Origin: Escherichia phage ECD7
Sequence record: NC_041936.1
Length of the DNA: 64,000 nucleotides
Direction: 5' to 3' (one strand)
Within the stretch, counting starts at the first letter, position 1. The number at the start of each line of letters is the position of its first letter. A program made the position numbers and the translations under genes. This document shows, piece by piece, positions 3,831 through 48,417 of the stretch. The notes below the pieces were generated by a model. The model was not told the origin of the DNA. It was given only the letters and a program-made list of their open reading frames with translations, and did not search any database.

Positions 3831-3864
3831 CCCAAAACGAAAAAGCCGACCCTTTCGGATCGGC
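3831..3864 (-). terminator. rho-independent terminator after nrdD
   Basis: Hairpin GCCGATCCGAAAGGGTCGGC followed by TTTTTCGTTTT on the minus strand. Confidence 0.6.
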
Positions 3865-3870
3865 TGAAAT

Positions 3871-8128: not shown

Positions 8129-8142
8129 AATATAATCCTCTA

Positions 8143-8415: not shown

Positions 8416-8446
8416 TGTTGATTCTCCTTCTTGATTAGATGGGAGC

Positions 8447-8475
8447 ATTTTACTACTCCCATTTCTTATTGTCAA
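8447..8475 (-). promoter_or_regulatory. early promoter TTGACA-17-TAAAAT with dyad GGGAG/CTCCC
   Basis: Upstream of the 8415 start (SD GAAGGAGAATCAACA). Confidence 0.45.
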
Positions 8476-8478
8476 CTA

Positions 8479-8976: not shown

Positions 8977-9270
8977 TTAACCATTAATCTTGTTTTTGAC
9001 TACAAAGGATCGGAACTCATCAAAGCCACCGATATAATCACCATCATAGAAAATCTGCGGCATGGTGGCAATAACTTCTACCCCTGCGCGATCCTGAATG
9101 TCGGCAATGATAGAATCAATCTTTACAGGGCGACCGTTTTCGTCCACACCATCATTGACAGGAATATAGATGTAAGGGATCTTACGCGATTCACAAAGGC
9201 GCTTTGCATTCTGGCAATACTTACAGTTGTAACCTTCAAAACCAAAAATTTCTACCATGTTGTACCTCAA
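8977..9270 (-). CDS. nrdC: phage thioredoxin/glutaredoxin (NrdC-like)
   Basis: CKYCQNAKRL redox motif and TMPQIFYDGDYIGGFD closely parallel T4 NrdC. Confidence 0.8.
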   Translation of the reverse strand: MRYNMVEIFGFEGYNCKYCQNAKRLCESRKIPYIYIPVNDGVDENGRPVKIDSIIADIQDRAGVEVIATMPQIFYDGDYIGGFDEFRSFVVKNKING

Positions 9271-10079
9271 TCTACGTTAGTTACATAAACTTCTTGTGTA
9301 TCAGAAGACTTACCACCTGAACGATCTAGGCAATAGGTCTTATTCAACAGGACGCAGTTTAAATCATTCCGCTTGATAAAGTCAAGGAGATGATCATTTA
9401 CCTTTCCCTTATGATGTGTGACATTACTGATACCAAACCGAAAACCACGCTCCATAATAGATTCTACCCACTGATAGAATTTAATCTCTTCCTCGTCACT
9501 CCAGAACTTATTATATTCCGCAGAAGTGATAAGGTACGGCGGGTCCAAATAAACGAAATCACCTGGCAAGATCTCGATCTCGTCATAACGACCAGAAGTA
9601 AAACTGATTCGACCGTCTTTGTTTTCTTCCTTAAAATTCAGGACACGCTCTACCGCGTTTTCGTTAAAAGTCCGGCGACCAAAATTAGCATTAAATTCGC
9701 CCTTCCGGTTATGGCGGTTAATGTTGCTAAAACTGTGCTGAATCAGAACAAACAGAGATAGCGGATCTGGATTCTCATTATACTTCTTACGGAATGCCAT
9801 GTAAGCATCTTTATCATCACGAGACAAATCATTTTCGGCAATAATCCGCTTGATCGTAGAAACCGGATCAGGACACTCGTCAATCGCTTTGTACGCTTCA
9901 ATTAAGCGGTGATCATAGTCATTAGCCAGCACATCCCCTTCGACGTACAGAGACACGCTCAAGCCGCCACAAAAGGCATCAACAAAGCGGTTATAGTGCT
10001 TAGGGAAATACTTACTAACACCTGGCAATAGCTTTTCCTTATTGCCAGTATAGGGAATTAAACCTAATGCTTTCTTCAT
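9267..10079 (-). CDS. dam: DNA adenine methyltransferase (Dam family)
   Basis: 270 aa; motifs YTGNK, NRFVDAFCGGLSV, DFVYLDPPY and ISNV, collinear with T4 Dam. Confidence 0.9.
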   Translation of the reverse strand: MKKALGLIPYTGNKEKLLPGVSKYFPKHYNRFVDAFCGGLSVSLYVEGDVLANDYDHRLIEAYKAIDECPDPVSTIKRIIAENDLSRDDKDAYMAFRKKYNENPDPLSLFVLIQHSFSNINRHNRKGEFNANFGRRTFNENAVERVLNFKEENKDGRISFTSGRYDEIEILPGDFVYLDPPYLITSAEYNKFWSDEEEIKFYQWVESIMERGFRFGISNVTHHKGKVNDHLLDFIKRNDLNCVLLNKTYCLDRSGGKSSDTQEVYVTNVD

Positions 10080-10510
10080 TATCCCTTCCTCAAATAAGTT
10101 CTCTCAAGCTCTACCAGTTCGAAAAATTCTTGCCAATCACACGGAAAATTGCAGTTTCCAAAATGGTCTTCGTTATAGAGTTCTTGACCGGATGGCAACT
10201 TAATATCTGTTACGCTGTAGTATCCGCAACAATCGCAATCACCCTCTGTATATTCTGTTTTGGTAGGAATATCCATCATTGCCAGATACAAAGGTACATC
10301 GTCTTGCTCAAAGTTCATGTAACCTTCATGGTCAAACGAGACAAAGTTATCATCACCACCGAAAGGGATATAATGGTCATAATCGGTTATAGGTTGACCG
10401 TGTAATTCCCATTCTACAATTTTAACATTACCACTAAACTTTATACCCATAATTTCAACAAGAAAATGAGTATCGTCAATGTAAATCTTACTAGGGGTTG
10501 GATAAACCAT
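10079..10510 (-). CDS. hypothetical protein
   Basis: ORF track 143 aa. Confidence 0.5.
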   Translation of the reverse strand: MVYPTPSKIYIDDTHFLVEIMGIKFSGNVKIVEWELHGQPITDYDHYIPFGGDDNFVSFDHEGYMNFEQDDVPLYLAMMDIPTKTEYTEGDCDCCGYYSVTDIKLPSGQELYNEDHFGNCNFPCDWQEFFELVELERTYLRKG

Positions 10511-10520
10511 TATATAATCC

Positions 10521-10817
10521 TCATATCTCAGAGAATAGAATCTCTGTTAGCTTCACTGACTGCTCTCTGAATGTTAGCGTATACTCGAAAGGAAAGTCAA
10601 CACCCAACTTCAAAAGAGAATAGCCTACCGCCTCTTTATGCTTATCGGTTAGGGCGATCCTAACCAATTCCCGTTGAATCTCTTTAGGCGGTGAATGGAT
10701 AGTAACACGGGTATCATGTAATGTCCAGTCACCATTTCGAATTAAGATTAACGGTTTATCATCATTGAAGATCACCGACCCCTTTCCGGTCGGTGAATGT
10801 TTTATATTAATCATCAA
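10521..10817 (-). CDS. hypothetical protein
   Basis: ORF track 98 aa. Confidence 0.45.
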   Translation of the reverse strand: MMINIKHSPTGKGSVIFNDDKPLILIRNGDWTLHDTRVTIHSPPKEIQRELVRIALTDKHKEAVGYSLLKLGVDFPFEYTLTFREQSVKLTEILFSEI

Positions 10818-11028
10818 ATTCTAAGAAATATTCTGGAACGATATAACCGTTAAAGTCATTGCACTTATAAAAATGTGGTGCATTTAATGCTGGATGAGCA
10901 TTAGTAAAGAGTTTACCCTCTAGAAACAGAATGTAATTAATCGGTCTAATACCGACAGAATCAGGGTCTAAACCTTTTTCTTTCAGTTCAGCCAGCGTTA
11001 AAACTCGTCCAGATCGTAACTTAGCCAT
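10807..11028 (-). CDS. hypothetical protein
   Basis: ORF track 73 aa. Confidence 0.4.
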   Translation of the reverse strand: MAKLRSGRVLTLAELKEKGLDPDSVGIRPINYILFLEGKLFTNAHPALNAPHFYKCNDFNGYIVPEYFLEFDD

Positions 11029-11314
11029 GATTTACCCCCAATTCATCAAGATTATGTCGCAGCATTTCAGAGTATTTTTCTACTTCCTTAATCTTAGTGT
11101 GGATATCCACGATCTCATCCACACTATCAGAAATTTTAATGGCATTCGCGAGCGTGCTTTTACCCGCTTTCACAGTCTCTTTCATTTCAACCAACATGTC
11201 CGCGTGTTTCAATAGTAATTCTTCACGTCGAACATAAGCGACGGTCAAAGCCTCATCAGCGATTTCTAAAGCATTTTCAGCGACACCAACAACCATTTTA
11301 CGAGTAGACAGCAT
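11021..11314 (-). CDS. hypothetical coiled-coil protein
   Basis: ORF track 97 aa. Confidence 0.45.
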   Translation of the reverse strand: MLSTRKMVVGVAENALEIADEALTVAYVRREELLLKHADMLVEMKETVKAGKSTLANAIKISDSVDEIVDIHTKIKEVEKYSEMLRHNLDELGVNHG

Positions 11315-11328
11315 AAATTCACCTCACA

Positions 11329-11637
11329 TTATTTCACATTAACGCCGTCATCAATCCAGCCGACGCTATTTGGTTTAACAGTTTTACCATAGGATGCATA
11401 CTTAATCAAGCATGGTTTAACATCATTATCAAATCTTCCTAAACGTACCCCAAGATCAGGAATATCCATGTAGGCGGCTTTATATCCCCATGTGCCATAT
11501 TCAGAATCAATCTCAACCGGACGGCCTTTAAAAGCATACACTACACCGTGACGGTCAACGATAACATAGCAATAACCAGCCGGAAGATACACAGTTTCGC
11601 CGTAAACTTTAACTGGAGTAGCAGAAGAGATAAACAT
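11329..11637 (-). CDS. hypothetical protein
   Basis: ORF 11329..11673 trimmed to the Met behind GAGGATTATATT; promoter at 11672-11700. Confidence 0.45.
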   Translation of the reverse strand: MFISSATPVKVYGETVYLPAGYCYVIVDRHGVVYAFKGRPVEIDSEYGTWGYKAAYMDIPDLGVRLGRFDNDVKPCLIKYASYGKTVKPNSVGWIDDGVNVK

Positions 11638-12385: not shown

Positions 12386-12715
12386 TTATGATTTTAGTGA
12401 ATTAACCACTACATCAAAATGATGGACAGAGCACACCTTACGAAACACATATTCATCGTGTTTCGGGATCTCCCCTAACCTCTCTATTTCGCTCGCCATA
12501 ACGATAAACTGTTTATCTGGTGCATATGCCTTGTATGCTTCAACAACGCACGGAAAACGCGTTTTAGAGAGTTCTGGATAGTTTTCTGAATCCAGAAGGA
12601 CAATGAATACTCTGTTACATTGATTGTAGAATCCTGTTTTTGATTTCATCAAGTTTTCTTCTATGTTCAAGTCGCGCAATCTTCTTTTCATGATTTCGTT
12701 GGTTCTTGTCTTCAC
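12386..12715 (-). CDS. hypothetical protein (overlaps upstream ORF by about 100 nt)
   Basis: ORF track 109 aa. Confidence 0.4.
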   Translation of the reverse strand: MKTRTNEIMKRRLRDLNIEENLMKSKTGFYNQCNRVFIVLLDSENYPELSKTRFPCVVEAYKAYAPDKQFIVMASEIERLGEIPKHDEYVFRKVCSVHHFDVVVNSLKS

Positions 12716-12956
12716 AGTTTACCCACTCAACAAGATCTTTACCTAACTCGAAAGCCCATTCTCGGTCTTGCTTTACGTTTTGTAGGTATGGACTTTCTGA
12801 CACTCTACGAAGTGATGTTGTCGTAACAAGAATGATCCCAGAAATGGTCGGATGTTCCTTTCCATATACAATAGGACGCGAGTCACGTTCAATACCCTGT
12901 AAGAAGGTGTATCCTGAATCACTTAGGATCATATACATTTTCATTTCATCCATCAC
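12615..12956 (-). CDS. hypothetical protein
   Basis: ORF track 113 aa. Confidence 0.4.
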   Translation of the reverse strand: MMDEMKMYMILSDSGYTFLQGIERDSRPIVYGKEHPTISGIILVTTTSLRRVSESPYLQNVKQDREWAFELGKDLVEWVNCEDKNQRNHEKKIARLEHRRKLDEIKNRILQSM

Positions 12957-13210
12957 AGTTTCCTCAACCAGTTATTAAAGCGAGTAAACCATGATGCTTT
13001 TCGTGCTTCTTTTACTTTATGTGCACGTAAACCACTGAAACACCATTCATAATCATCACTGAAACATGATTCAACAGGAACACCCGCATTTCGTAGTTCT
13101 CTGGTCTTTATCATGAATCCTTGACATAAGGGGCGACCTTCAACAATAATAGGAAGTTTAACTTTTTCCATGAAAGTATACCCAGCACGGTCAATAATTT
13201 CAATTTTCAT
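12953..13210 (-). CDS. hypothetical protein
   Basis: ORF track 85 aa. Confidence 0.45.
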   Translation of the reverse strand: MKIEIIDRAGYTFMEKVKLPIIVEGRPLCQGFMIKTRELRNAGVPVESCFSDDYEWCFSGLRAHKVKEARKASWFTRFNNWLRKL

Positions 13211-13454
13211 TTACATTATCTCCATAGATCTTTCCAGCAATATCAATTTCACCAGCGCGAACATCTAGGATAAGATGCGGTAGGTGTATGCAGTTTTCCC
13301 ACCCTACGCGCTTCATTTCTTCTACGGTAACGTAAGCCCATCCGTTCGCTGTAATAAAGTCTACTTCAACCTTGAGAGGAAAGAAAGACTTTTCTATGTC
13401 TTCGAATCCGACAATATGTTTTGTTGTTGAATATGGAATATATCCGGTGATCAT
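13200..13454 (-). CDS. hypothetical protein
   Basis: ORF track 84 aa. Confidence 0.45.
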   Translation of the reverse strand: MITGYIPYSTTKHIVGFEDIEKSFFPLKVEVDFITANGWAYVTVEEMKRVGWENCIHLPHLILDVRAGEIDIAGKIYGDNVNEN

Positions 13455-14652: not shown

Positions 14653-14680
14653 ATTATAGCATTGTGATTATCTTTGTCAA
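14653..14680 (-). promoter_or_regulatory. early promoter TTGACA-16-TATAAT
   Basis: Immediately downstream of the 14684-14717 terminator; SD AAGGAGAATCAAAG. Confidence 0.55.
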
Positions 14681-14683
14681 CAC

Positions 14684-14717
14684 CCAAAAACAAAAAAGGC
14701 TATCCCGAAGGATAGCC
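14684..14717 (-). terminator. rho-independent terminator after the Gly-rich gene
   Basis: Hairpin GGCTATCCTTCGGGATAGCC + TTTTTTGTTTTT on the minus strand. Confidence 0.6.
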
Positions 14718-16833: not shown

Positions 16834-17032
16834 TCTTCACGGTCTCCATAATTGTTTTGTAAGCCAGTTTAAGATGATCACCGAAAAACTTTGCGGTGTT
16901 ACCCTTCGGATCGCGGAGCATGGTTTCTACGATCTCATCGTCAGTAACAATTTCTCCCTTCTTTGCTGCATGTTCTACCATATACTTCAAAGTTTCTTCG
17001 GAGGCAAGTGCTGCGGCTACTGGATTAATCAT
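16823..17032 (-). CDS. hypothetical protein
   Basis: ORF track 69 aa; SD AAGGAGAACCAAA; promoter at 17062-17090. Confidence 0.4.
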   Translation of the reverse strand: MINPVAAALASEETLKYMVEHAAKKGEIVTDDEIVETMLRDPKGNTAKFFGDHLKLAYKTIMETVKNAK

Positions 17033-17061
17033 TTTGGTTCTCCTTTGTTGTCGATGTGTGC

Positions 17062-17090
17062 ATTATGCTATACCCTATTCCGGTTGTCAA
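17062..17090 (-). promoter_or_regulatory. early promoter TTGACA-17-CATAAT
   Basis: Downstream of the 17094-17125 terminator; leader CAACAAAGGAGAACCAAA-ATG. Confidence 0.5.
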
Positions 17091-17093
17091 CAC

Positions 17094-17125
17094 CTAAAAA
17101 CGAAAAAGCCACCCTTTCGGATGGC
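17094..17125 (-). terminator. rho-independent terminator
   Basis: Hairpin GCCATCCGAAAGGGTGGC + TTTTTCGTTTTT on the minus strand. Confidence 0.6.
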
Positions 17126-17359
17126 TTTTGATTATATTTTATTCACGTCCATTTGTATAGTAGTGTTTGAATCGACCTTTGCTAAACTCGTTAAACATAG
17201 TAACCAATTTACCATCCCTTTCCAATGATAACCCTTCCTCGTCTTAGATGGGTCTTCCGATTCGGCAGTAATTGAACACGCGAAAGTATGAGGAAGCCAA
17301 ATGGTTGTGTTAATGCTAGTATTCTTTTACTTCTGGTATGTATCCCAATGTGACTAACA

Positions 17360-17758
17360 TTAAGCCAATCGAGTGAGTTTATAAATTGTTTTAAAGCATA
17401 GAGCTTTGATATCGTCTAAAACGCTCTGTAACGAGCTATCAACATCATTATAAATCTCACTAGCCATTTGCGTTAACTCTTGCAAATAGGCAATTTCGCT
17501 CATCTCCTTGCGGACGACCAACGTTGGCTGATAACGACCAGTGATCCCAATATTGGTTTCAGTGAAATCATCAACCAATTCTTGCATTTCAAGATAGAAC
17601 TCTTCTAGAGCCTTATGTTTTGCATAAGATCCAGGACCAGTTACCCCAAAATGCGCAGAATGCATATAAGTAACACTCATCAGACATTCACCGATAAAGC
17701 GGTCAACTTTATTAGCTTTCCCCTCTTCGGACGTCTTTCGAAAATCACTGAATTTCAT
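17360..17758 (-). CDS. Dps/ferritin-like protein (putative)
   Basis: ORF 17360..17857 trimmed to MKFSDF; HSAHFGVTGPGSYAKH...EEFYLEMQELVDDFTE has the His-x12-His and Asp/Glu spacing of a Dps ferroxidase site. Confidence 0.45.
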   Translation of the reverse strand: MKFSDFRKTSEEGKANKVDRFIGECLMSVTYMHSAHFGVTGPGSYAKHKALEEFYLEMQELVDDFTETNIGITGRYQPTLVVRKEMSEIAYLQELTQMASEIYNDVDSSLQSVLDDIKALCFKTIYKLTRLA

Positions 17759-18047
17759 GTTCTCGATTCTCCATATTATGCAACATAACAAACTGTTGTG
17801 CGGCATATTCCCCCATAATAAAACACTGCTTAGAATCCATACATTTACTACGAGCATACATCTTCATAATATGGGCATGAAATTTCTGGCTGGTTTCAAT
17901 GGAAGGAGATATTTTGTTTACATATACTATCATTGCACCGTCGAAATAATCAGTAAAGTCACCAGTTGGATCATATTGATCAGCACTGACACTTCCGACC
18001 GCAGTCAAGCATATTGCCGCTGTTAGAGTTTTACGAATAAATGACAT
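17745..18047 (-). CDS. secreted/periplasmic protein, rI-like (putative lysis-inhibition regulator)
   Basis: 100 aa; N-terminal signal peptide MSFIRKTLTAAICLTAVGSVSA; two-Cys C-terminal region resembling T4 rI; sits next to tk as rI does in T4. Confidence 0.45.
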   Translation of the reverse strand: MSFIRKTLTAAICLTAVGSVSADQYDPTGDFTDYFDGAMIVYVNKISPSIETSQKFHAHIMKMYARSKCMDSKQCFIMGEYAAQQFVMLHNMENREHEIQ

Positions 18048-27083: not shown

Positions 27084-27272
27084 TTAGTCTTTTTTCAAAA
27101 TTTTTAAGGCAGTTTCTACAGCACCTTTCCAACCCTCCCACATAATGGACATAGTAATGAAGTTAAAGCACCCGCAGGAATCAACCTTTTTAGAGATAAA
27201 CCATTCAACAAATCCTTCGCTCATACCATGCTCTTTAGCGGATTCGCGTAATTGTTCAATTTGGTCTTCCAT
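27084..27272 (-). CDS. hypothetical protein
   Basis: ORF track 62 aa. Confidence 0.4.
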   Translation of the reverse strand: MEDQIEQLRESAKEHGMSEGFVEWFISKKVDSCGCFNFITMSIMWEGWKGAVETALKILKKD

Positions 27273-27281
27273 AGTATCACC

Positions 27282-27482
27282 TCAACACTTAACGTTATTC
27301 AAACGATTTTGAAAGTACATATAGCAAGCATAATTTTGCTTTGGTTGTACCGTATCAGATAGACACGCTTTTGCAGCCTCGCGGTCCGATGGATCTACAC
27401 CCTCAGCTTTAAGTAATGCTAAAATCTGGTTATAGCGTACTCTTAGCTGTACTAATGGTTTCTCTCCCACAAAACCCTCCAA
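27282..27482 (-). CDS. hypothetical protein
   Basis: ORF track 66 aa. Confidence 0.4.
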   Translation of the reverse strand: MEGFVGEKPLVQLRVRYNQILALLKAEGVDPSDREAAKACLSDTVQPKQNYACYMYFQNRLNNVKC

Positions 27483-27710
27483 TTAAAGTTGTTCTGCAAT
27501 GTATGCGGTGCATTTGCGGAGTTTAGCCATAGCACCACCTTTCATGTCGCTTGCGCCTACAATGTTCATGATCTCTAAGCGATCAGCCGGATTCAGTCTA
27601 GTAGCCCAGATCTGGTTAGCCAGTTCCATTTTACCCATCTGCGGTTCCATCTCAAACATTTCACGCTCAAAGTCGATAATTTCTTTTGCTGCGTCTTTAA
27701 AGTTAATCAT
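27483..27710 (-). CDS. hypothetical protein
   Basis: ORF track 75 aa; promoter at 27740-27768. Confidence 0.4.
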   Translation of the reverse strand: MINFKDAAKEIIDFEREMFEMEPQMGKMELANQIWATRLNPADRLEIMNIVGASDMKGGAMAKLRKCTAYIAEQL

Positions 27711-28237: not shown

Positions 28238-28456
28238 TTATTTATATCGCTTTCTCTCGCGACGTTTTTGATCTTCTTCCTTGATAGAGTTAAACGCATC
28301 AAAAAGACACATGACACTGATAATGAACATAACCGTATTTTCTACGATATCCCACGGCTTCGCATCAGTACAGATCCCCCAAACGGTAAGAAATGCAAAT
28401 AGTGCAGAAGAGATCACAAGCATGATACTTGCTAAGATATAAAAAGTCATTTTCAT
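28238..28456 (-). CDS. small hydrophobic membrane protein
   Basis: ORF track 72 aa. Confidence 0.4.
   Translation of the reverse strand: MKMTFYILASIMLVISSALFAFLTVWGICTDAKPWDIVENTVMFIISVMCLFDAFNSIKEEDQKRRERKRYK
28239..28246 (-). promoter_or_regulatory. TATAAATA late-promoter-like box overlapping the last codons of gene 28238..28456
   Basis: Exact match to the T4 late -10 consensus on the minus strand, facing a 150-nt non-coding stretch that ends at a terminator; could be chance. Confidence 0.3.
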
Positions 28457-28647
28457 GGTTTTACCTCAATTCTTCGATATTCATCACACATCCACGCAGT
28501 AAGCAAGAATCCCAGCACATAAGCAACAAAATACGTTAATGCTTCTTCTGGTTTCGTGCTATGTATCATCAGTAAACCAGCGAGAACGGTCTTAACAATT
28601 ACATTTAAAATAATTAGCCACGCAAATAATTTCATCGTTTGCCCCAT
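28453..28647 (-). CDS. small hydrophobic membrane protein
   Basis: ORF track 64 aa. Confidence 0.4.
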   Translation of the reverse strand: MGQTMKLFAWLIILNVIVKTVLAGLLMIHSTKPEEALTYFVAYVLGFLLTAWMCDEYRRIEVKP

Positions 28648-29996: not shown

Positions 29997-30025
29997 ATTA
30001 TTCTATAGTCGTTTATGGTTGTCAA
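29997..30025 (-). promoter_or_regulatory. early promoter TTGACA-17-AATAAT
   Basis: Downstream of the terminator after the acb1-like gene; coordinates anchored to the 30069 stop. Confidence 0.45.
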
Positions 30026-30029
30026 CACC

Positions 30030-30062
30030 TAAAAACAAAAAACCCCGAAAAATTTTCGGGGT
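30030..30062 (-). terminator. rho-independent terminator after the acb1-like gene
   Basis: Hairpin ACCCCGAAAATTTTTCGGGGT + TTTTTGTTTTT on the minus strand. Confidence 0.6.
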
Positions 30063-40091: not shown

Positions 40092-43000
40092 TTAAAGCGC
40101 CTAGTGTAACTAGCTTGACAATAGAAAAATTGTCTGCTAATCAGGCGTATATCACATGGGATGACGTAGGCGAAAACTTCTTTTATTTTGTGGAGTTAGC
40201 CGAAACCAGAACGCGAGACGGGGAGATCATCCCCGTCGATGAGTTAAGCTGGGTAAACCTGGGATATACTGCCGATCAAAACTGGTTTGAGGATAAAAAC
40301 CTTTTTCCAGAATATTATTACAAGTTTCGTGTAGCAGTAGCCGCAGAAGGATTTGAACAAAGTAAATGGGTTGAGACAGAAGAGTTTCAGACATTTAAAA
40401 CAAACGCATATAATTTTTCTATGATGCGAGAGTTCAACCTTGCAAACGAGTTTATAAAGGAAAAATTTACATACGATAATCGAGAGTATGTCAAGTTTAA
40501 TACTGACCTGATTCAAGCATCATTGATGAAGGAAGATTTTGTCTTTAGTCCTGAATATGCAAACATGACAAATATCTCAAACTACATTGTAGTTGATGAG
40601 AACTTTCATGAAATACAGGATCACATAGAAAAAGTTTGTACTGATATAAACCGCACAATGTTAGCGGAAATGAACGGTGTTTTGTACCTTTTCGAACGGT
40701 TCCAGCCGATCGTGAAAGTGTCAAATGATAAAGGTCAATCATGGAAAGCATACAAGGCTTTTAATGATCGTGTAGGCAATCCGGTTTCCCGCACATGCGT
40801 TTATCAGTCTAAAACCACTACTTACGTTTTAGGATATGACCGAATCTTTTACGGACGACAAGCTAGCGATACTCGATGGAGCGCGGACGATGTTCGATTT
40901 AGTGATGATACGATCACTTTTGCAAAGGTTGGTGACGAGAACGATTTAGGCTTTGATGTTGAGGTCTTTGGTGTATTTTCCAGATTAACAGGTGATACCA
41001 CAAAATACGCCGAAGCTATGGCGTGCAGTGATGACTATTTGTGGGTTGGTGCTAAAGATGTTATTCGCCGGATTCGTCTTAAGAATACTCCTGTTGATAC
41101 CGTACAGGGTTCGCCTACGTTTGGAGAAAAAATATTCGATCCTGATGTTATACGAGTAACAGGAAATGATAAAGCTGTCATTCAGAAAATGGATGTGATC
41201 GACGGTAAATTGCTTGTATTTGTTACGGGTGAAGTTAAACAGCGTTATCAAGATCCAACTAAACCAGAAAACGTTGTTCCGTCAGATGATGCGGGTGTAT
41301 ACTTAATAGGGAGTGATGGTCTGTCTTTTCAGAGAGTATTTGGCAACACTCCGCAGGAAAGGGAATATATTCAGCACGGGTTCAGTAATATGTCAACCAA
41401 TGGTGATGAGGTGTTCATAAGCCATTATAATCATCACTTCGAAAGCATTTTACCTGATCCAGAAACTGCCGCAAAATATGAATTAGGCGAAGCTGTAAAA
41501 TATTCTCAGGAGCCAACTTATCTAACTGATAAGAAAATACATCAAACTACTTTCAGAGCAAGTTATGATGATTTGCGTATTTGGGAGTTAGGACCGCAAG
41601 CGTATTATAACGAGGCTGATTATACATGGATGCGTCGAAACGGTGTCCGTGTGTGGATCACAAATGATAATCGCCCGTTGGTTGTTTATCCAGAGGTTGT
41701 CTATACTCAAGAAGTTGATACATCTGGCATTCTTGACCAAAATAGGGTTAACCGAGAAGTTTATGATAAAGGGACCGTGACCTGTTATCTTAACAATGTT
41801 AAATTTGAAGGATTCAAACAATATGCATCCGGTGTAATGTTCCATAAAAACACAGGAGAGATCATTGGATTCTATCAATTTAATTATCGTGTTCGTGATC
41901 AGGTTGGTGTATATTGGAAACCTACAAATGTAGCATTTGTTGCTGAATTGCAAAATCAGGTTAGAGAGGTTCCCTGGGTTCCGGTTCACTACGATCGAGA
42001 GCAAGATCCAGATTTGCGGCCTTTACTGAATAAGATGACCCCTGATAGCTTTTTACTTGAGAACGAAAATTTCAGAAAATTCTCTGAATATTATCTGCAA
42101 TTCTTAAGCGATGGTTCAGGAACATATTATAATAAACTAAAAAATCTGATTAAAAACAAATATCCACGCGAGAAAGATGCATATGAGTATCTTTGGTCAG
42201 AGATGAACAAACGAAACATCTATGCAGATAAAAACAAGCGAGATGCGGTAGTAAGATTCTTTGAATCCCGCAAATCAGATTTTTATTCCACTAAGGGCGT
42301 GGAGGCTTCTTATAAGTTCTTGTTTAAGTTACTTTATAATGAAGATGTGGAAATTGAGGTTGAATCACAAGCCGGACTAGAGTATGATATTGTTGTTAGT
42401 TCAACGAACATTGACGAGGATATCGTAGGTCGCACGATTTATACTCCAACCGGACGGGCTAACGTGACGTATCTTGAAAGGGAATATGAAGGTGGTCGCC
42501 TACGCTGGCGAGTAACCATTCATAACCTGATCGGGCGGTTCGAAGAAGGTCAAGTGATCAAATCAGAGAAAACAGCGTTTGAAGGGATGATCCTTGTTGG
42601 TGTACGTGGTAAAGAGTTGTTGAGTAGTTCAATCGACTATATCAACCGCTCACGAAGCCAATACACCATGAAGATTAAAAGTGCATTGCCAGTTTCGCGC
42701 TATGCAAATGATGTAATGCGATTCGTTCATCCTGTCGGCTTTGGGTTTATCGGTGTTACCCTGCTTACAATGTTCATTAACAGCGGGTTAAGCATGAAGC
42801 ACACCGAGACTATAATTCAATCTCTGAAAAATTATAAGTTTGACAGCGGATTGCCTAGCGTGTATCCTGATCGGGTGGCAGACCTTGACGTTGACGGAAA
42901 CATTAAGAAAGACCCGCTTACCGGAAAAGCATTATATTTGACTTCACCTTTAATTGGTGAAGAATTTCCGGTTCCTCCTGAATATGATCAGGAGAACAGC

Positions 43001-43174
43001 GAATTGTTCCACGGACTTAAAGCAAGCGAACGAAGATTTGCAATGAGTCCACTGTTTGACCAGTCGGCGGTAACATTCTCTATGTTCCGTGAACTTGTAG
43101 ATAAACGGTTGAAGGATAATATAGGGAATCCACGCGATCCGAAGAATCCGACACAGAGGAAAATTAATGGCTAA
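40088..43174 (+). CDS. 7: baseplate wedge protein gp7
   Basis: 1028 aa (T4 gp7 is about 1032 aa); synteny. Confidence 0.85.
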   Translation: MIKAPSVTSLTIEKLSANQAYITWDDVGENFFYFVELAETRTRDGEIIPVDELSWVNLGYTADQNWFEDKNLFPEYYYKFRVAVAAEGFEQSKWVETEEFQTFKTNAYNFSMMREFNLANEFIKEKFTYDNREYVKFNTDLIQASLMKEDFVFSPEYANMTNISNYIVVDENFHEIQDHIEKVCTDINRTMLAEMNGVLYLFERFQPIVKVSNDKGQSWKAYKAFNDRVGNPVSRTCVYQSKTTTYVLGYDRIFYGRQASDTRWSADDVRFSDDTITFAKVGDENDLGFDVEVFGVFSRLTGDTTKYAEAMACSDDYLWVGAKDVIRRIRLKNTPVDTVQGSPTFGEKIFDPDVIRVTGNDKAVIQKMDVIDGKLLVFVTGEVKQRYQDPTKPENVVPSDDAGVYLIGSDGLSFQRVFGNTPQEREYIQHGFSNMSTNGDEVFISHYNHHFESILPDPETAAKYELGEAVKYSQEPTYLTDKKIHQTTFRASYDDLRIWELGPQAYYNEADYTWMRRNGVRVWITNDNRPLVVYPEVVYTQEVDTSGILDQNRVNREVYDKGTVTCYLNNVKFEGFKQYASGVMFHKNTGEIIGFYQFNYRVRDQVGVYWKPTNVAFVAELQNQVREVPWVPVHYDREQDPDLRPLLNKMTPDSFLLENENFRKFSEYYLQFLSDGSGTYYNKLKNLIKNKYPREKDAYEYLWSEMNKRNIYADKNKRDAVVRFFESRKSDFYSTKGVEASYKFLFKLLYNEDVEIEVESQAGLEYDIVVSSTNIDEDIVGRTIYTPTGRANVTYLEREYEGGRLRWRVTIHNLIGRFEEGQVIKSEKTAFEGMILVGVRGKELLSSSIDYINRSRSQYTMKIKSALPVSRYANDVMRFVHPVGFGFIGVTLLTMFINSGLSMKHTETIIQSLKNYKFDSGLPSVYPDRVADLDVDGNIKKDPLTGKALYLTSPLIGEEFPVPPEYDQENSELFHGLKASERRFAMSPLFDQSAVTFSMFRELVDKRLKDNIGNPRDPKNPTQRKING

Positions 43175-44162
43175 TGAAAATAGTGTGATCTATCGCTCAA
43201 TCATTACTAGTAAATTCAGAACGGAAAAACTTCTGAATTTCTATAATTCTGTAGGCGATGAGGCAAATCAAATTACAATTTATGGAACGTTTGGACGTTC
43301 GGAGCCGTGGTCAGAAAACGAAAAAGAGGTGGGCTTTGCCCCACCTTATCCGACCGATTCAACGGCTGGTGTTGTTGACATGTGGACCCATATGATGGGG
43401 GCGGTTAAGATTAACAAATCACTTCTTGATGCGGTTATCCCTCGTAAAGATTGGGGTGATACCGGACAGGATAACCCGCGCACATTCTTTATCAATGACA
43501 TTGTTGTTGTCAACTCAGCACCATATAACAGAACTGATGTTGGTAGCGGCTGGATGGTGTATCGCGTAACCGATGTTCCTGATCGCGGTTACTGCTCGAT
43601 TTCAAGCATTGACGCTAAAGTGGAGTGTTTGAAGTTGGGCGGAAAGTGGACCCCCACTCATGAATCAATTGCGCCACCTGTAGGAAAGGGCGATTCTATT
43701 GATATGGGTGATGGGTATCGTTGGGAATATCTGTACACAATTCCACCTGATGCGGCGATCAACCGTTGCACCAATGAACATATTGTTGTACCGTTCCCCG
43801 ATGAACTGCGACAAGATCCGGCGCGTTGGGGTTATGACAATGTGATCACCTGGTATAATGACTATAATCTGCTTTATCGGCTGAAAGTAGTAACTTTGCG
43901 TTTTCAGGCTTATATGGACTCTGCGCAATTCCCAACTACCGCGTTAGTGGGTAATACTGGTTTCCGTCAGTTAAGCATTATCCTTAACCCATTGGAAAAG
44001 AAAGCACGCCCTAGCGATCCAGACGTTAAAGCGGTCAAAGATAAGTACCGACCGCAAGACTTAGAGCCACACTCAGGCGAAATGATCTACATGGAAAACC
44101 GACAACCTATCGTTCGGTCATTAGATCAAACAGAACTTGTTTCTGTATTGTTTGAGTTCTAA
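43167..44162 (+). CDS. 8: baseplate wedge protein gp8
   Basis: 331 aa (T4 gp8 is about 334 aa); synteny. Confidence 0.85.
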   Translation: MANENSVIYRSIITSKFRTEKLLNFYNSVGDEANQITIYGTFGRSEPWSENEKEVGFAPPYPTDSTAGVVDMWTHMMGAVKINKSLLDAVIPRKDWGDTGQDNPRTFFINDIVVVNSAPYNRTDVGSGWMVYRVTDVPDRGYCSISSIDAKVECLKLGGKWTPTHESIAPPVGKGDSIDMGDGYRWEYLYTIPPDAAINRCTNEHIVVPFPDELRQDPARWGYDNVITWYNDYNLLYRLKVVTLRFQAYMDSAQFPTTALVGNTGFRQLSIILNPLEKKARPSDPDVKAVKDKYRPQDLEPHSGEMIYMENRQPIVRSLDQTELVSVLFEF

Positions 44163-44174
44163 GTGTATGATTTA

Positions 44175-44205
44175 AAAGCCAATTCGAGAGAGTTGGCTTT
44201 TTCTA
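44175..44205 (+). terminator. rho-independent terminator after gene 8
   Basis: Hairpin AAAGCCAA-ttcgagagag-TTGGCTTT + TTTCTATTTT. Confidence 0.5.
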
Positions 44206-44214
44206 TTTTGGGTG

Positions 44215-44242
44215 TTGACAATCTTGTCTGATAAGGTATAAT
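44215..44242 (+). promoter_or_regulatory. early sigma70-like promoter TTGACA-16-TATAAT inside the late block
   Basis: Consensus hexamers then SD GGAGG and the ATG at 44272. Confidence 0.6.
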
Positions 44243-44271
44243 GATCACATCTAAACAACGGAGGATAAATT

Positions 44272-44529
44272 ATGGCACGTCGTAAATTTACAGATAATTG
44301 TGAAGCAATTCAGGTATCCCCTTGCGGTTGGGATGTGATCGCGAACGGTGAAAAGATCGGAGAGATCATCGATCATACTCATTCATCACTAGCCGATTAC
44401 ACCGATGAACTATTGGAGGGTATCAACTTCATGAATGACACTAAACGATTCAAGACTATCGACGAAGCTATCTATTTTGTGTATAATCCAACTTTCGGTA
44501 TGTGGGGTAATAGAAAATGGCACGCGTAA
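44272..44529 (+). CDS. hypothetical protein, first gene of the inserted early cassette
   Basis: 85 aa; MAR start shared by all three cassette genes; SD GGAGG; own early promoter. Confidence 0.5.
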   Translation: MARRKFTDNCEAIQVSPCGWDVIANGEKIGEIIDHTHSSLADYTDELLEGINFMNDTKRFKTIDEAIYFVYNPTFGMWGNRKWHA

Positions 44530-44849
44530 ATATTAAATTGCATTACACAATGAATAAAGCTAAGTTCCCAATGCAAAAGCATTACTATGGTCTACGTGCA
44601 CAAGATCCTAAACTCTATGGTACTCATTGGTTTTGTAAACATGATAACCAATGGCACACATACGAAGAAATGCACGAGATGATGAAACAGGGTATTGAAT
44701 TTAGTTATTCTAATTATGACCATCGTATAACTTGCATTCGAAAATTGAAACGATGGATTCGTAAGAATCCGCAATTTAAAAACTTTGTGTTCTTTATGTC
44801 TCATGTTTATTTGGGACATAGCGTTACCGTCACAGCAAAGGTTAAATAA
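44517..44849 (+). CDS. hypothetical protein, second cassette gene
   Basis: 110 aa; start overlaps upstream stop. Confidence 0.5.
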   Translation: MARVNIKLHYTMNKAKFPMQKHYYGLRAQDPKLYGTHWFCKHDNQWHTYEEMHEMMKQGIEFSYSNYDHRITCIRKLKRWIRKNPQFKNFVFFMSHVYLGHSVTVTAKVK

Positions 44850-45688
44850 TGGCACGACTTTCTAAACAAGAACAAAAATTACACGATCGGGTGATGGAGT
44901 TGATTAATTCAGATCGCCCATTGACATATGAAGAAAAAGAATTTTGCTATAATAACTATCATGGCGATGGTCTAGGCGGTTCAGGTGCATTCTTTACCCC
45001 AGAAGGGCTTGCATGGGATTTTACCATCGATGCACATTGCACAGGAAAAGTATTAGATCTTTGTGCTGGGATCGGTCGCTTATCTTTTTGTATGTTACAT
45101 CGTTGTAAGCCAGAAAAGATCGTATGCGTCGAACTCAATCCAGAATTTGCGCGGATTGGCAAGAGACTATTACCGGAGGCAGAATGGATCACCAGCGATG
45201 TATTCGAATTTGAGTCAAACGAAAAATTCGATGTGGTGATCAGCAATCCACCTTTCGGGAAAATCAATACAACCAACACAAAGGATGTATTTGAGTACAC
45301 TGGCGGCGAATTTGAATTTAAGGTTATGACATTAGGCCAGAAGTTTGCCGATGTTGGCTATTTTATTGTTCCTGTGGGTTCCGCTGGTTTTGCTTATTCC
45401 GGCAGACCTTATTATGACGGGACCATGAAGTCTAATAAATATCTAAAATGGAGCAAACAAACTGGTTTGGTGACTTATGCCGGATGTGGTATCGATACAT
45501 CAATCTATCGCGATGAATGGCACAGTACCAACGTTTTAACAGAAGTGGTTGAGGTTCGGTATTACGAGAAAGAAGCCGTAGAAGCGCCTAAATCACGCCC
45601 TAACGAACAAATAGAAGAAAGTAAGGAGATTACCTTACCGAAACAGGAAAGCGAGTCTGGGACGCTCTCAGATTTGTTTGACATTTAA
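44849..45688 (+). CDS. N6-adenine methyltransferase-like protein (gamma-class motif order, NPPF)
   Basis: 279 aa; FFTPEGLAWDF, AdoMet motif VLDLCAGIGRL, catalytic DVVISNPPFGK; no obvious target-recognition domain. Confidence 0.65.
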   Translation: MARLSKQEQKLHDRVMELINSDRPLTYEEKEFCYNNYHGDGLGGSGAFFTPEGLAWDFTIDAHCTGKVLDLCAGIGRLSFCMLHRCKPEKIVCVELNPEFARIGKRLLPEAEWITSDVFEFESNEKFDVVISNPPFGKINTTNTKDVFEYTGGEFEFKVMTLGQKFADVGYFIVPVGSAGFAYSGRPYYDGTMKSNKYLKWSKQTGLVTYAGCGIDTSIYRDEWHSTNVLTEVVEVRYYEKEAVEAPKSRPNEQIEESKEITLPKQESESGTLSDLFDI

Positions 45689-45693
45689 TTATA

Positions 45694-45718
45694 AGCCGTC
45701 CTCGTGGGCGGCTTTTTT
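45694..45718 (+). terminator. rho-independent terminator after the methyltransferase-like gene
   Basis: Hairpin AGCCGTCC-tcgt-GGGCGGCT + TTTTTT. Confidence 0.55.
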
Positions 45719-45728
45719 GTATGTATTT

Positions 45729-45736
45729 TATAAATA
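45729..45736 (+). promoter_or_regulatory. late promoter box TATAAATA upstream of gene 9
   Basis: Exact late consensus 28 nt before the gp9 ATG; SD GAGGA. Confidence 0.55.
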
Positions 45737-45763
45737 ATACATCATAACATGAGGAATTAAACA

Positions 45764-46618
45764 ATGGCACAAGTTCCAAAGAAAAGAATAGACACAGGTA
45801 CTGTCGGCAATCCATCGACTGGCGATATCTTATATGATGGCGGTAATAAAATTAACGATAACTTTGATTCAATATATGACGCATTTGCTGATCAGCGGTT
45901 TAAAGACGTAGACCACGGCGTGGGAAGAATGGTTATTCATGCAACCGGATACTATCAGAAGCATCCACGTCAAAGCTACGCTGGTTCCGCTGTTGAGATT
46001 GGGAGTCTACACGATATCGATACAACTCAAGGCGCACTTATTGCTATTCTACCTAAAGCGAAGGTTGGTGAGGGTGTTGTATTCATAAATAGTAACGGTA
46101 GCCTTTCAACGACGACACCGCTCAATATTCGAACTCAAGCAGGTGATTCTATTAGCGGGTATTCCGGTGATGCTACAATAACACAACCATTTTCAAAAGT
46201 CACTGTTTGGTGTACTGCCGTTGAAGGTAGTCGCGTAACATGGCGATTGGGTATCGAAAGTATGTTTACCGATACAACAACGCCATTAGATAAAACAGTT
46301 AACGTAACTGGAGTAGCAACAAACGTTGCTATTGCCGCAAAAACAGAATACGTTTCCATCAAATTATTAACTACCGCTAGCAATACATCCGGTTCAAAAA
46401 TGCGTTCAAGTGAAACGCTACTAATGATTGATTCTAAAGCCGGAAAAGTTTATGCGACGGAATATGCAGTTTTGCAGAAGACAGAAGATGAACTATACAC
46501 GGTTCGTTATTTCATCGGTTCCGGCGATAAAGTATATGCAGAGTATAAGGCTACTGGCGAAAATATTCGTTTAGCAGTTAAAGCCGTAGACACTATTAAA
46601 ATCGGGGTTGCTACATGA
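45764..46618 (+). CDS. 9: baseplate wedge / long tail fiber connector gp9
   Basis: 284 aa; N-terminus PKKRIDTGTVGNPSTGDILYDGGNKINDNFDSIYDAF parallels T4 gp9. Confidence 0.85.
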   Translation: MAQVPKKRIDTGTVGNPSTGDILYDGGNKINDNFDSIYDAFADQRFKDVDHGVGRMVIHATGYYQKHPRQSYAGSAVEIGSLHDIDTTQGALIAILPKAKVGEGVVFINSNGSLSTTTPLNIRTQAGDSISGYSGDATITQPFSKVTVWCTAVEGSRVTWRLGIESMFTDTTTPLDKTVNVTGVATNVAIAAKTEYVSIKLLTTASNTSGSKMRSSETLLMIDSKAGKVYATEYAVLQKTEDELYTVRYFIGSGDKVYAEYKATGENIRLAVKAVDTIKIGVAT

Positions 46619-48417
46619 AACAATTAATTAATATCGGTAACGTTGTTGATGACGGTACAGGTGATTATCTAAGAAAAGGTGGTCAAAAGATTAATGACAA
46701 CTTTTCTGAACTTTACACTAAGCTGGGGGATGGTGATATCCCTCATGCATCCGGCGCGTGGAAAACTCACACACAACCAGTATTAAAACCAAATTTTGGT
46801 GATGCATGGGCGATTAATACAACGAACAACGCTGTTTCTGTTGAATTGCCTAAAGGAAGCGCGAGTGATTATAATAAAACAATTAAACTTCGTGATGTTT
46901 GGCGCTCATGGGCTGCACATAACGTAACGTTGAAGCCAGCACAAGGTGATACCATTAAGGGATCTCCAATCGACCGTGAGTTGTATAAAGATTTCATGGA
47001 TGTTGAATTGGTTTATTGTGCGCCTGGACGTTGGGAATATGTCGAAAATAAACGAGTAGATACTATCACCACTTCCGATTTAAGCACAGTCGCTAAGGAA
47101 GTTTATATTGCAACCGAAGGACAAACAGACTTCCCCAATGTGTTTGGTTCCAATACTTACAACATTCGAAATGTTGAAGTGTATTATCGCGGTAACTTGC
47201 TTTATTATGGCAAGGATTTAACCGATGATTCTAACTATGGTTCAATCGGTGAAAATGGTGATATTGTTCCGCTGGACGGTAAAAGCATTAAATTACGCTT
47301 CCCTTGTTCGGCGGGTGATACCATTCAAATCATCACTTATATGGACGGTATCGCATCCTTCCGGTCAAGCTATATTACTCATACAATCCGCGTTTATGAA
47401 ACAGGAATGACCACTTTGGAATCCATCCCAGGTGAAGTTTGGGTTGGTGAACTAGCTAATAAGAAAGAATTTACTAATGCTGAATTAGGCGTAAGTAAGC
47501 GAGATCTTATTAATCCAAATTCATTTGAATTGCTGATCAACGGCACACAAATGATTAAAGCGGGCGATGCGGATTTACCTTTCTTTATTTGTGAAGGTGC
47601 TGACGGTGAAACAGAAGAAACCTGCGTACTTGCTGGCGGTCAATGGGTGGAATCTGGCGAAGATTATTCATTGATGTTCGACGAAAACAGCGTGGTGACT
47701 GGTATTAAATTATCTAAAGCACTAGATAACCGAGACACTATCACAATTCGCTGGTTTAATAATGATATCGGAACATTAATGGAATGGGACGGTGTAGGTG
47801 GTATTAAAGAAAAAGCAGATAAAATCTATCTTAATAACGAAGATGAAGTTACTCTGACAAATCGAATTGAATATACCGATTTCCAGAATCCAAGCCAAGC
47901 GACTAAACGCCCAATGGAAGATTATACAGGTCGTGTGATGGATATCTATTCCATATTCGATATTTTCTATCCTATAGGCACAATTTATGAAAATGCGCAT
48001 AACCCAGCTAACCCAGCGACCTATATGGGATTTGGTACATGGGTACGTTATGCAGAAAAAGAATTTTTAGTTGGTTGGTCCTCTGACGCAAGCGATCAAA
48101 ACTTCGCACTAAACAACAACGATCTTGATACACATGGTCAACCTACACACACCGCAGGTGGTAACGGTGGTGATGTTGCATACCAGATCAAGAAAAATAT
48201 GATTCCTGAATTACAGAGCGACGATCGAGTTCTTGTAAAAGATGATAACGGAAATATTATTATCGGTGGTTGTCAGGTAGACCCTGATGCAGTAGGTCCA
48301 GCGTTTACCAAATATCGCGAAGATAATGTTAAAGTTAATCAGGGAAATACCGATCCATCAATGATTGGTATTCTTCCTCCATACAGAACTGTCTATCGTT
48401 GGCTAAGGGTAGGTTAA
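46615..48417 (+). CDS. 10: baseplate wedge / short tail fiber attachment protein gp10
   Basis: 600 aa (T4 gp10 is about 602 aa); synteny. Confidence 0.85.
   Translation: MKQLINIGNVVDDGTGDYLRKGGQKINDNFSELYTKLGDGDIPHASGAWKTHTQPVLKPNFGDAWAINTTNNAVSVELPKGSASDYNKTIKLRDVWRSWAAHNVTLKPAQGDTIKGSPIDRELYKDFMDVELVYCAPGRWEYVENKRVDTITTSDLSTVAKEVYIATEGQTDFPNVFGSNTYNIRNVEVYYRGNLLYYGKDLTDDSNYGSIGENGDIVPLDGKSIKLRFPCSAGDTIQIITYMDGIASFRSSYITHTIRVYETGMTTLESIPGEVWVGELANKKEFTNAELGVSKRDLINPNSFELLINGTQMIKAGDADLPFFICEGADGETEETCVLAGGQWVESGEDYSLMFDENSVVTGIKLSKALDNRDTITIRWFNNDIGTLMEWDGVGGIKEKADKIYLNNEDEVTLTNRIEYTDFQNPSQATKRPMEDYTGRVMDIYSIFDIFYPIGTIYENAHNPANPATYMGFGTWVRYAEKEFLVGWSSDASDQNFALNNNDLDTHGQPTHTAGGNGGDVAYQIKKNMIPELQSDDRVLVKDDNGNIIIGGCQVDPDAVGPAFTKYREDNVKVNQGNTDPSMIGILPPYRTVYRWLRVG

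Follow-up and report, generated by a model that had tools for sequence, protein, structure and literature searches.

A methyltransferase with a predicted clamp-binding tail in the gene 8/9 insert of Krischvirus phages

Anatomy and conservation of the gene 8/9 insert

The baseplate genes 8 and 9 of Escherichia phage ECD7 (sequence record NC_041936.1) are separated by an insert of 1.55 kb with three open reading frames (ORFs), and the third of these encodes a methyltransferase whose last residues resemble those of the phage DNA polymerase and are predicted to bind the gp45 sliding clamp. The analysis was performed on a window of 64,000 nucleotides from this record, and positions are counted from its first letter. 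An earlier note, made from the letters of the window alone, had described a self-contained early-promoter module within the late baseplate operon, made up of a terminator, a promoter, three translationally coupled ORFs, a second terminator and a late promoter box for gene 9. All of these elements were located, as follows.

43167-44162, plus strand: gene 8 (baseplate wedge), the 5' flank of the insert; Pfam Phage-Gp8 at 8e-144, PHROG 977
44174-44201, plus strand: intrinsic terminator hairpin, the stem-loop half of a putative PeSL element; 12-bp stem and T run, -15.6 kcal/mol
44206-44242, plus strand: early promoter of the putative PeSL; conserved leader TTTTGGGTG, -35 box TTGACA at 44215-44220, 16-nt spacer, -10 box TATAAT at 44237-44242
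44272-44529, plus strand: ORF1, 85 amino acids, start MARRK (Phi1 ORF140, phrog_16603)
44517-44849, plus strand: ORF2, 110 amino acids, start MARVN (Phi1 ORF142, phrog_12630); 13-nt overlap with ORF1
44849-45688, plus strand: ORF3, 279 amino acids, start MARLS (Phi1 ORF143); 1-nt overlap with ORF2 (TAATG)
44849-45592, plus strand: catalytic domain of ORF3, residues 1-248; minimal gamma-type amino-methyltransferase dependent on S-adenosylmethionine (SAM)
44990-45007, plus strand: ORF3 motif X, FFTPEG, residues 48-53
45050-45076, plus strand: ORF3 motif I, VLDLCAGIG, residues 68-76
45245-45256, plus strand: ORF3 motif IV, NPPF, residues 133-136
45593-45661, plus strand: disordered acidic/polar linker of ORF3, residues 249-271; AlphaFold2 (AF2) pLDDT <50
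45662-45685, plus strand: C-terminal peptide of ORF3, TLSDLFDI, residues 272-279; predicted gp45-binding, with likeness to the gp43 tail
45693-45714, plus strand: intrinsic terminator at the 3' end of the cassette; 9-bp stem with 6 G-C pairs and T run, -15.9 kcal/mol
45729-45736, plus strand: T4-type late promoter box TATAAATA for gene 9; the gene 9 ATG lies 27 nt downstream
45764-46618, plus strand: gene 9 (baseplate wedge/tail-fibre connector), the 3' flank of the insert; Pfam T4_gp9_10_N at 1e-40

The promoter at 44215-44242 matches the sigma-70 consensus at 12 of 12 positions; the window has four such perfect sites in all, where 0.23 would be expected. By its sequence, the terminator at 44174-44201 would stop late read-through from genes 6-8. 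The late box TATAAATA shows no excess over chance in the window (5 copies, 6.3 expected), and its position before gene 9 was taken as meaningful because all five copies share the same promoter geometry, lying 27-34 nt upstream of a Shine-Dalgarno sequence and ATG.

Region 43900-45900 was 100% identical to Escherichia phage Delraymugoa and 90-100% identical to 57 phage records, all of them RB49/Phi1/JSE-like (genus Krischvirus); the insert was present in every one of the 57. The adjacency of genes 8 and 9 in T4, stated in the earlier note, held when the junction was compared, and the gp8 and gp9 matches were likewise contiguous in Mosigvirus, CC31, phiR1-RT and Mineola (query 16-2731 falling on about 1.19 kb). 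The earlier note had allowed that the three genes might stand at this junction in all relatives: they do so throughout the Krischvirus records and not in T4, Mosigvirus, CC31, phiR1-RT or Mineola. Since gp8 and gp9 are contiguous in the other genera, the 1.55-kb insert is specific to Krischvirus. The cassette in the form first described is a known, genus-fixed feature, as its genes were already annotated in Phi1 (ORF140, ORF142 and ORF143, the last as 'DNA methyltransferase') and PeSL elements have been published. New here are the predicted clamp-binding tail of ORF3 and what appears to be a family-wide rule by which the tail matches the clamp of the replicon.

Horizontal acquisition, also proposed from the sequence, was upheld in part: the methyltransferase belongs to a mobile family found in T4-like and jumbo phages, prophages and plasmids, and a recent gain is not supported, the cassette being fixed in the 57 Krischvirus records. 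No compositional sign of recent transfer was seen in the cassette, its G+C content (0.345-0.418, window 0.404) being ordinary. The shared MAR start of the three ORFs was discarded as a signal, given that MA[RK] is conserved family-wide in the methyltransferase and that gp8 and gp9 also begin with MA. An Rfam scan of 43000-47000 gave sub-threshold chance matches only.

Fold and enzyme class of ORF3

ORF3 was modelled with AF2 using 35 homologues (pLDDT 83, pTM 0.80). Residues 1-247 were predicted with high confidence as two N-terminal helices followed by a Rossmann methyltransferase fold, and residues 248-279 as disordered (pLDDT <50); the earlier suggestion that the protein has no target-recognition domain agrees with a fold that stops at about residue 247. 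In the homologue alignment, motif X (GAFFTP), motif I (DLCAGIG, with L71, C72, A73, G74, I75 and G76 invariant over the 35 homologues) and motif IV (NPPF; N133, P134, P135 and F136) were invariant. Their order, X-I-IV, is that of the gamma class, to which the protein had been assigned from FFTPEG, VLDLCAGIG and NPPF. Pfam MTS and Methyltransf_25 scored above their cut-offs. ORF3 is additional to Dam, which was confirmed at 9267-10079 on the minus strand (TIGR00571, 152 bits against a cut-off of 115).

Comparison of the model with known folds gave figures of 18.8 for lmo1582, 18.3 for METTL5, 17.7 for PH1948, 16.2 for Type I HsdM, 16.1 for M.BseCI, 16.0 for MmeI, about 15.8 for KsgA/Erm and 15.8 for M.TaqI, with 180 of the 382 residues of the M.TaqI chain aligning to ORF3. 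The best PDB sequence matches were PH1948 and RsmC, and the best NCBIfam matches were PrmC, RsmC and PrmB, all far under the family cut-offs. The best match in the defence library was the MADS methyltransferase mad2 (5e-17), and motif X and the N-terminal helices match DNA enzymes of the HsdM type. Identity of ORF3 to each of METTL5/PH1948, HsdM, M.TaqI, M.BseCI and mad2 was 24% or less. Gamma-class DNA enzymes differ from it by a recognition domain or an HsdS partner, and METTL5 by a TRMT112-like partner, none of which was seen for ORF3; neither a target-recognition domain nor a co-distributed specificity-partner gene was found in the AF2 fold or in the checks of neighbours and of ORF1-ORF2 distribution.

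Two assignments were rejected. As a HemK/PrmC glutamine methyltransferase equivalog, ORF3 scored 37.4 bits on TIGR03534 against a cut-off of 199.1, and as a restriction-modification system the cassette has only ORF1-3 between gp8 and gp9, with no match to a nuclease family. From the model and the motifs, ORF3 is an exocyclic-amine methyltransferase, most likely of the N6-adenine type, without a target-recognition domain. Its substrate is probably DNA.

The C-terminal tail of ORF3

ORF3, like Phi1 ORF143, ends in ...ESGTLSDLFDI (Phi1 methyltransferase ...ESESGTLSDLFDI), and the Phi1 DNA polymerase gp43 ends in ...EKVASLTDLFDI (at greater length ...YEKVASLTDLFDI), its last residues being SLTDLFDI. 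The C-terminal 30-mer of gp43 was 100% identical in 57 of 57 Krischvirus records, including the phage identical to the window. Among stop-to-stop segments of at least 60 amino acids in the window and two Phi1 loci, no ending of the DLFDI type was found besides those of gp43 and ORF3. The RB69 gp43 C-terminus (...EKKASLFDMFDF; ...YEKKASLFDMFDF) aligns with the Krischvirus gp43 tail through ASLFDMFDF, and its last 11 residues have been co-crystallised with the gp45 clamp (PDB 1b8h; PMC3012046, PMC2988020). Clamp motifs at the C-termini of gp43, gp33 and gp55 can stand in for one another, and variable, probably unstructured linkers carry them (PMC3012046, PMC2988020).

The linker of ORF3 differs among the orthologues of the window, P0001, P0002, L013 and L014, while SGTL[ST]DLFDI is constant, and this ending was kept even in an ORF3 orthologue of 68% identity. 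In the homologue alignment the phage versions are extended at the C-terminus and have a conserved hydrophobic end there, whereas the enterobacterial chromosomal versions stop at the fold. ORF3 thus has, at its extreme C-terminus, a motif that matches a proven type of clamp client, borne on a flexible and variable linker. With the tails of T4 gp43, gp33 and gp55 it shares the extreme C-terminal position, the hydrophobic and acidic composition, the variable unstructured linker and a near-identical peptide in its cognate gp43. We consider it likely, on these sequence features, that the tail is a clamp-binding motif. In PMC9690074, PMC3012046 and PMC2988020 the clamp clients described for T4 are the polymerase, gp33, gp55, RNase H and ligase, with no methyltransferase among them.

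Other Krischvirus C-termini that resemble the clamp motif were those of the ligase gp30 (...TVKEVFDV), gp33 (...PTNTLDI) and gp55 (...LPSLDQFYEIEN); in Phi1 (NC_009821), gene 30 lies at 9863-11359 and gene 33 at 28356-28625 of one locus; gene 55 was read at 27150-27683 of another locus. We know of no described gp45 contact for the gp30 ending in T4.

Tail types in the methyltransferase family

Relatives of ORF3 numbered 1729 in a large protein collection and were found in 288 phage records and 187 plasmid records. The phage matches comprised Krischvirus, T4-like Pseudotevenvirus/Slopekvirus, Aeromonas, Sinorhizobium, Dickeya and Vibrio phages and jumbo phages. Counts of Escherichia, Enterobacteria and Shigella matches were approximately those of the 57 Krischvirus records plus the RB16-type coliphages, which suggests that, in this collection, the hundreds of records from Tequatrovirus and Mosigvirus contain no member of the family. 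On E. coli plasmids no relative was found at 1e-5.

The beta clamps of bacteria are bound through a motif with the consensus QL[SD]LF (PMC9690074), and this type of ending is carried by bacterial and plasmid homologues of ORF3. In Pseudomonas megaplasmid homologues a Pro/Ala linker of 80 residues leads to the ending ...SFAQLSLFDAA; on prophage-type IMG/VR contigs, dozens of them, the tails are QLSLFDAA, QLDLFGMAA, QADLFGVAA, QASLFGDAA or QLDIFEQIA; and plasmid homologues end in QLSFF (Agrobacterium), QLALL (Labrenzia) or GLFDI (Streptomyces). In the T4-like phages the methyltransferase and gp43 tails were AQNLFTFTIE and SLNTLFGDDW for RB16, KSDLFTFTIE and SLNDLFGDW for KP15, and SSATFDFRIE and SLSDLFDF for the L037-type lineage.

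Tail statistics were calculated over 142 full-length representatives of 50%-identity clusters, with the strict clamp motif defined as Q[LIMFV]x[LMF][FLM] within the last 12 residues. The motif was present in 24 representatives, against a mean of 0.24 and a maximum of 2 in shuffled tails, and in none of 3026 internal 12-residue windows. A looser xLF pattern was found in 45 of the 142 (3.1 expected). Judged from these endings, the type of motif appears to follow the clamp used by the replicon, being gp43-like in T4-like phages and QL[SD]LF in plasmid and prophage-type members.

In RB16 (locus 16840-17571) and KP15 (17138-17914) the homologue lies in the replication cluster, between 61.1 (primase-linked) and the helicase gene 41; two small conserved ORFs, distinct from Krischvirus ORF1 and ORF2, come before it. 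In the two prophage-type contigs examined, the homologue adjoins RecT/YqaJ recombination genes or another DNA methylase. Tail-less homologues of 236-242 residues are very common in Enterobacteriaceae, where they occupy the extreme edge of segments, about 20-40 kb long, that resemble islands or prophages; the Citrobacter freundii chromosomal copies (about 8001-8717 of their loci) adjoin bssR-yliI-gstB and are accompanied by an HNH gene and many small uncharacterised ORFs.

ORF1 and ORF2

The small ORFs had been called unrecognisable, and so they were in Pfam, NCBIfam and PADLOC, where neither had a match, and in PHROGs, where both fell in function-unknown families only. A model of ORF2 was poor (pLDDT 62) and had no structural match. 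Outside Krischvirus, relatives of both are confined to a small number of rV5-like coliphages (Vequintavirus), at 58-70% identity. There the two are again adjacent, among rV5-type ORFans, as in FV3 (JQ031132) at 12605-13425 (3510-4330 of its locus). No methyltransferase-family match was obtained at E<=1e-5 in the Vequintavirus phages that carry ORF1-ORF2. Conversely, tblastn found no relative of ORF1 or ORF2 beside the Citrobacter methyltransferase homologues, and the annotated neighbours of the RB16, KP15, Pseudomonas, Agrobacterium, Streptomyces and Labrenzia copies are other genes (by annotation, not sequence comparison).

The distributions thus indicate that the cassette is made of two separate modules, an ORF1-ORF2 pair and the ORF3 methyltransferase. 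Because each occurs apart from the other, a role of ORF1 or ORF2 as specificity subunits is unlikely, and the idea of a three-gene unit with specificity supplied by the small ORFs was not borne out.

Two alleles of ORF2 were seen in Krischvirus, one of 98-100% and one of 71-76% identity, the latter group including the RB49 record NC_005066, GEC-3S and the Whisky and Makalu phages. ORF1 and ORF3 around both alleles are about 90-100% identical, and a divergent ORF2 between near-identical neighbours implies local recombination; the pattern points to local allelic replacement or a diversifying hotspot at ORF2. ORF2 was also present, at 58% identity, in records labelled 'Campylobacter phage' (C9, A112b), which look like oddly labelled coliphage-type sequence.

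The PeSL terminator-promoter element

RB49 and phi1 contain about 50 PeSL elements, in which a consensus sigma-70 promoter is joined to a stem-loop terminator, mostly upstream of ORFans, and a few of which lie inside virion modules beside genes of no known function (PMC2839356). They mediate modular shuffling (Arbiol et al. 2010, PMC2839356) and have been treated further as mobile regulatory cassettes of RB49/phi1 (Comeau et al. 2014, PMC4122927). For other PeSLs, experiments have demonstrated promoter and terminator activity as well as recombination or the formation of mini-circles (PMC2839356).

The element at 44174-44242 is intergenic and consists of a consensus sigma-70 promoter and a stable stem-loop upstream of an ORFan, in keeping with the PeSL definition. 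The PeSL core TTTTGGGTGTTGACA was found, with up to 2 mismatches, at five sites in the window (0.23 expected), and at two of the three sister promoters examined (about 3800 and 14653) the same succession was present of a G+C-rich hairpin, a T run, the promoter and 'CACAT' after the -10 box. The element is thus probably a PeSL and a member of a repeated sequence family. Its likeness to the published PeSLs lies in the stem-loop and sigma-70 promoter upstream of ORFans and in the repetition of its sequence in the genome; the difference is that the gene 8/9 insert is genus-fixed and not variable. The main text of the PeSL paper (PMC2839356) makes no mention of the gene 8/9 locus or of the methyltransferase. 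As a PeSL, the element would account for an early unit within a late operon, for the insulation of that unit by terminators and for a late promoter belonging to gene 9 itself.

The four other copies of TTTTGGGTGTTGACA, at 3822-3836, 14675-14689, 17085-17099 and 30020-30034, have at most 1 mismatch each and lie on the minus strand in the early part of the window. Of the five, the cassette copy alone lies on the plus (late) strand.

A 17-nt imperfect direct repeat (AAAGCACGCCCTAGCGA and AAATCACGCCCTAACGA) was noted at 44001-44017 and 45590-45606, its copies being 1589 nt apart, which is about the size of the insert. Both copies are coding, one in the 3' end of gene 8 and one in the methyltransferase linker, and each encodes K-[AS]-R-P. 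The repeat is probably due to chance; it could be a recombination scar.

Proposed mechanism and alternative explanations

The insert is read here as an early unit that was brought into the late baseplate operon by a PeSL-type element and is now fixed in Krischvirus. The proposal for ORF3 starts from direct observations, namely the anatomy of the locus, the fold, the identity of the motifs, a disordered linker and the association, seen across the family, of type of tail with type of replicon. ORF3 would be produced early from the sigma-70 promoter and would dock by its polymerase-type tail on gp45 clamps, either at forks or remaining on new DNA. Since it has no recognition domain, it is proposed to rely on the clamp for DNA tracking, so that the clamp would serve as its tracking module. 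ORF3 may then methylate adenines of nascent phage DNA with short, degenerate or low sequence specificity, and this methylation may add protection or marking beyond that given by Dam at GATC. Binding to gp45, the DNA substrate, the low specificity and an anti-restriction role are inferred. Two points bear on the anti-restriction role: the match counts that suggest absence of the family from Tequatrovirus and Mosigvirus, and the general description of RB49-type phages as being without T4-type cytosine modification (hydroxymethylcytosine). The full mechanism, that of a clamp-tethered, replication-coupled DNA adenine methyltransferase, is considered moderately probable. For the wider version, in which members of the family without a recognition domain use the clamp of their own replisome (gp45 in T4-like phages, the host beta clamp in others) for replication-coupled methylation of low specificity, the chances are put at even; the Krischvirus gene 8/9 methyltransferase, with a tail that repeats the one on its own polymerase, would for that reason be its clearest case.

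Several observations weigh against this mechanism. The fold and sequence of ORF3 do not discriminate between a DNA and an RNA substrate. Phi1 gp45 is 36% identical to RB69 gp45, and the pocket residues listed for RB69 are partly conserved. The [DN]LF core is all that the methyltransferase tails of RB16 and KP15 share with the corresponding gp43 tails. Many members lack a tail, among them the enterobacterial island copies of about 238 residues and those of Aeromonas AS-zj and Yersinia fHe-Yen9-04, so the clamp is not obligatory for the activity of the fold. No report of binding, methylation or phenotype was found in the open-access literature for ORF3 or its family. The Krischvirus phage SAP is reported to have modified (glucosylated methyl-type) cytosines and its 99.96%-identical relative TB34 canonical cytosines, with no known pathway genes found (PMC13390438, 2026); the DNA of the genus is therefore not certain to be unmodified and in need of protection.

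Alternatively, ORF3 could be an amino-methyltransferase that acts on RNA or protein, of the METTL5/RsmC/TrmN6 or HemK/PrmC type, expressed early for the modification of host rRNA, tRNA or a translation factor, with a tail unrelated to its target. PH1948 and RsmC as top PDB matches, PrmC, RsmC and PrmB as top NCBIfam matches, the name 'release factor glutamine methyltransferase' given to the homologue in several GenBank records, and a METTL5-like size with no recognition domain are all in line with such an enzyme. Those sequence matches fall far under the family cut-offs (37 bits for PrmC against 199), however, no TRMT112-like partner was seen to be co-distributed with the family in the checks of the Citrobacter neighbours and of ORF1-ORF2, and motif X (GAFFTP) and the N-terminal helices are like those of HsdM-type DNA enzymes; moreover, the genes beside family members are those of replication, recombination and DNA methylases, and a clamp-type tail that varies with the replicon is hard to reconcile with an RNA or protein enzyme. 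We regard this explanation as unlikely.

The distribution of ORF1-ORF2 bears on a different view, in which all three ORFs make up a single unit, anti-restriction or epigenetic, with ORF1, ORF2 or both as specificity or DNA-recognition subunits. A common promoter and terminator, translational coupling, the want of a recognition domain in the methyltransferase and the allelic replacement of ORF2 in Krischvirus, of a kind frequent for specificity subunits, would all suit it. It is nevertheless very unlikely in view of the Citrobacter copies, beside which tblastn found no ORF1 or ORF2 relative, of the copies in RB16 and KP15 and on Pseudomonas, Agrobacterium, Streptomyces and Labrenzia plasmids, which by annotation have other genes beside them, and of Vequintavirus FV3 and its relatives, which have the adjacent pair and no methyltransferase-family match at the threshold above; in addition, ORF1 and ORF2 match no functional family and ORF2 has no structural match. 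Least probable of the three is a mainly regulatory tail, by which ORF3 would compete with gp43, gp33 and gp55 for gp45, for instance in the timing of polymerase exchange or late transcription, or which would be a degron or another shared signal, methylation being secondary. The ORF3 ending is of the same type as that of gp43, its expression is early as judged from the promoter, and the gp45 sites are common to replication and late-transcription clients, with interchangeable motifs (PMC2988020). Throughout the family, however, all motifs for SAM binding and catalysis show strict conservation (NPPF and CAGIG invariant), and the same logic of tails recurs on plasmids and prophages that use the beta clamp, where late-transcription control of the T4 style is irrelevant.

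Comparison with known systems

The closest functional analogue of a clamp-tethered ORF3 would be DNMT1 with PCNA (PMC9690074), in which a DNA methyltransferase carries a short clamp-binding peptide and methylation is steered to newly replicated DNA. DNMT1 is a large C5-cytosine enzyme with DNA-recognition domains of its own and a PIP box (a peptide that interacts with PCNA) that is internal, near the N-terminus, whereas ORF3 has a 248-residue amino-methyltransferase fold with NPPF and a motif at the extreme C-terminus whose binding is predicted; the two are analogues and not homologues.

Among prokaryotic enzymes the closest analogues would be M.EcoGIX and M.BceJIII, orphan methyltransferases associated with plasmid replication and specific for single strands (PMC7736820). 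They resemble ORF3 in being small orphan N6-methyladenine enzymes on mobile DNA, and they depend on replication, have a degenerate specificity (SAY) and act against restriction on entry; their authors suspected a host protein, for example the sliding clamp, of acting as intermediary (PMC7736820). They differ in belonging to the beta class (DPPY), in being unrelated in sequence to ORF3 and in a link to PolI, with no clamp motif reported. Homology of ORF3 to M.EcoGIX/M.BceJIII was ruled out, those being beta-class DPPY enzymes, and no E. coli plasmid match was obtained. The tested methyltransferase of Ochrobactrum phage vB_OspM_OC was also considered as an ORF3 homologue and proved to be a CcrM-like enzyme instead. 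A search of the open-access literature found no description of a clamp-binding motif in a DNA methyltransferase of bacteria or phages, and no Krischvirus methylome.

Orphan methyltransferases are common on phages and plasmids, and a clamp tether, if true, would explain how an enzyme devoid of a recognition domain reaches DNA. It would also explain why methylation could be confined to the replicating DNA of the mobile element and not extend to the host chromosome, and why methylation by other plasmid orphan enzymes depends on replication. The clients listed for the T4 gp45 clamp and for bacterial beta clamps would then include a DNA-modifying enzyme. The system would be a counterpart of DNMT1-PCNA among prokaryotes and viruses, not previously described, and would offer a testable parallel to eukaryotic replication-coupled methylation.

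DNA modification in Krischvirus

Krischvirus phages are present in therapy collections, and their DNA modification status therefore matters for host range in the face of restriction systems. SAP and TB34 both carry the gene 8/9 cassette, with 98.1% identity. In Phi1 (NC_009821), ORF189 (record 117297-118013, locus 3027-3743) is annotated as a 'DNA methyltransferase' of 238 amino acids and contains FAFPPC; it had no Pfam match at 1e-3 and is unrelated to ORF3. Through this gene, which lies outside the window, Krischvirus may carry a third modification enzyme.

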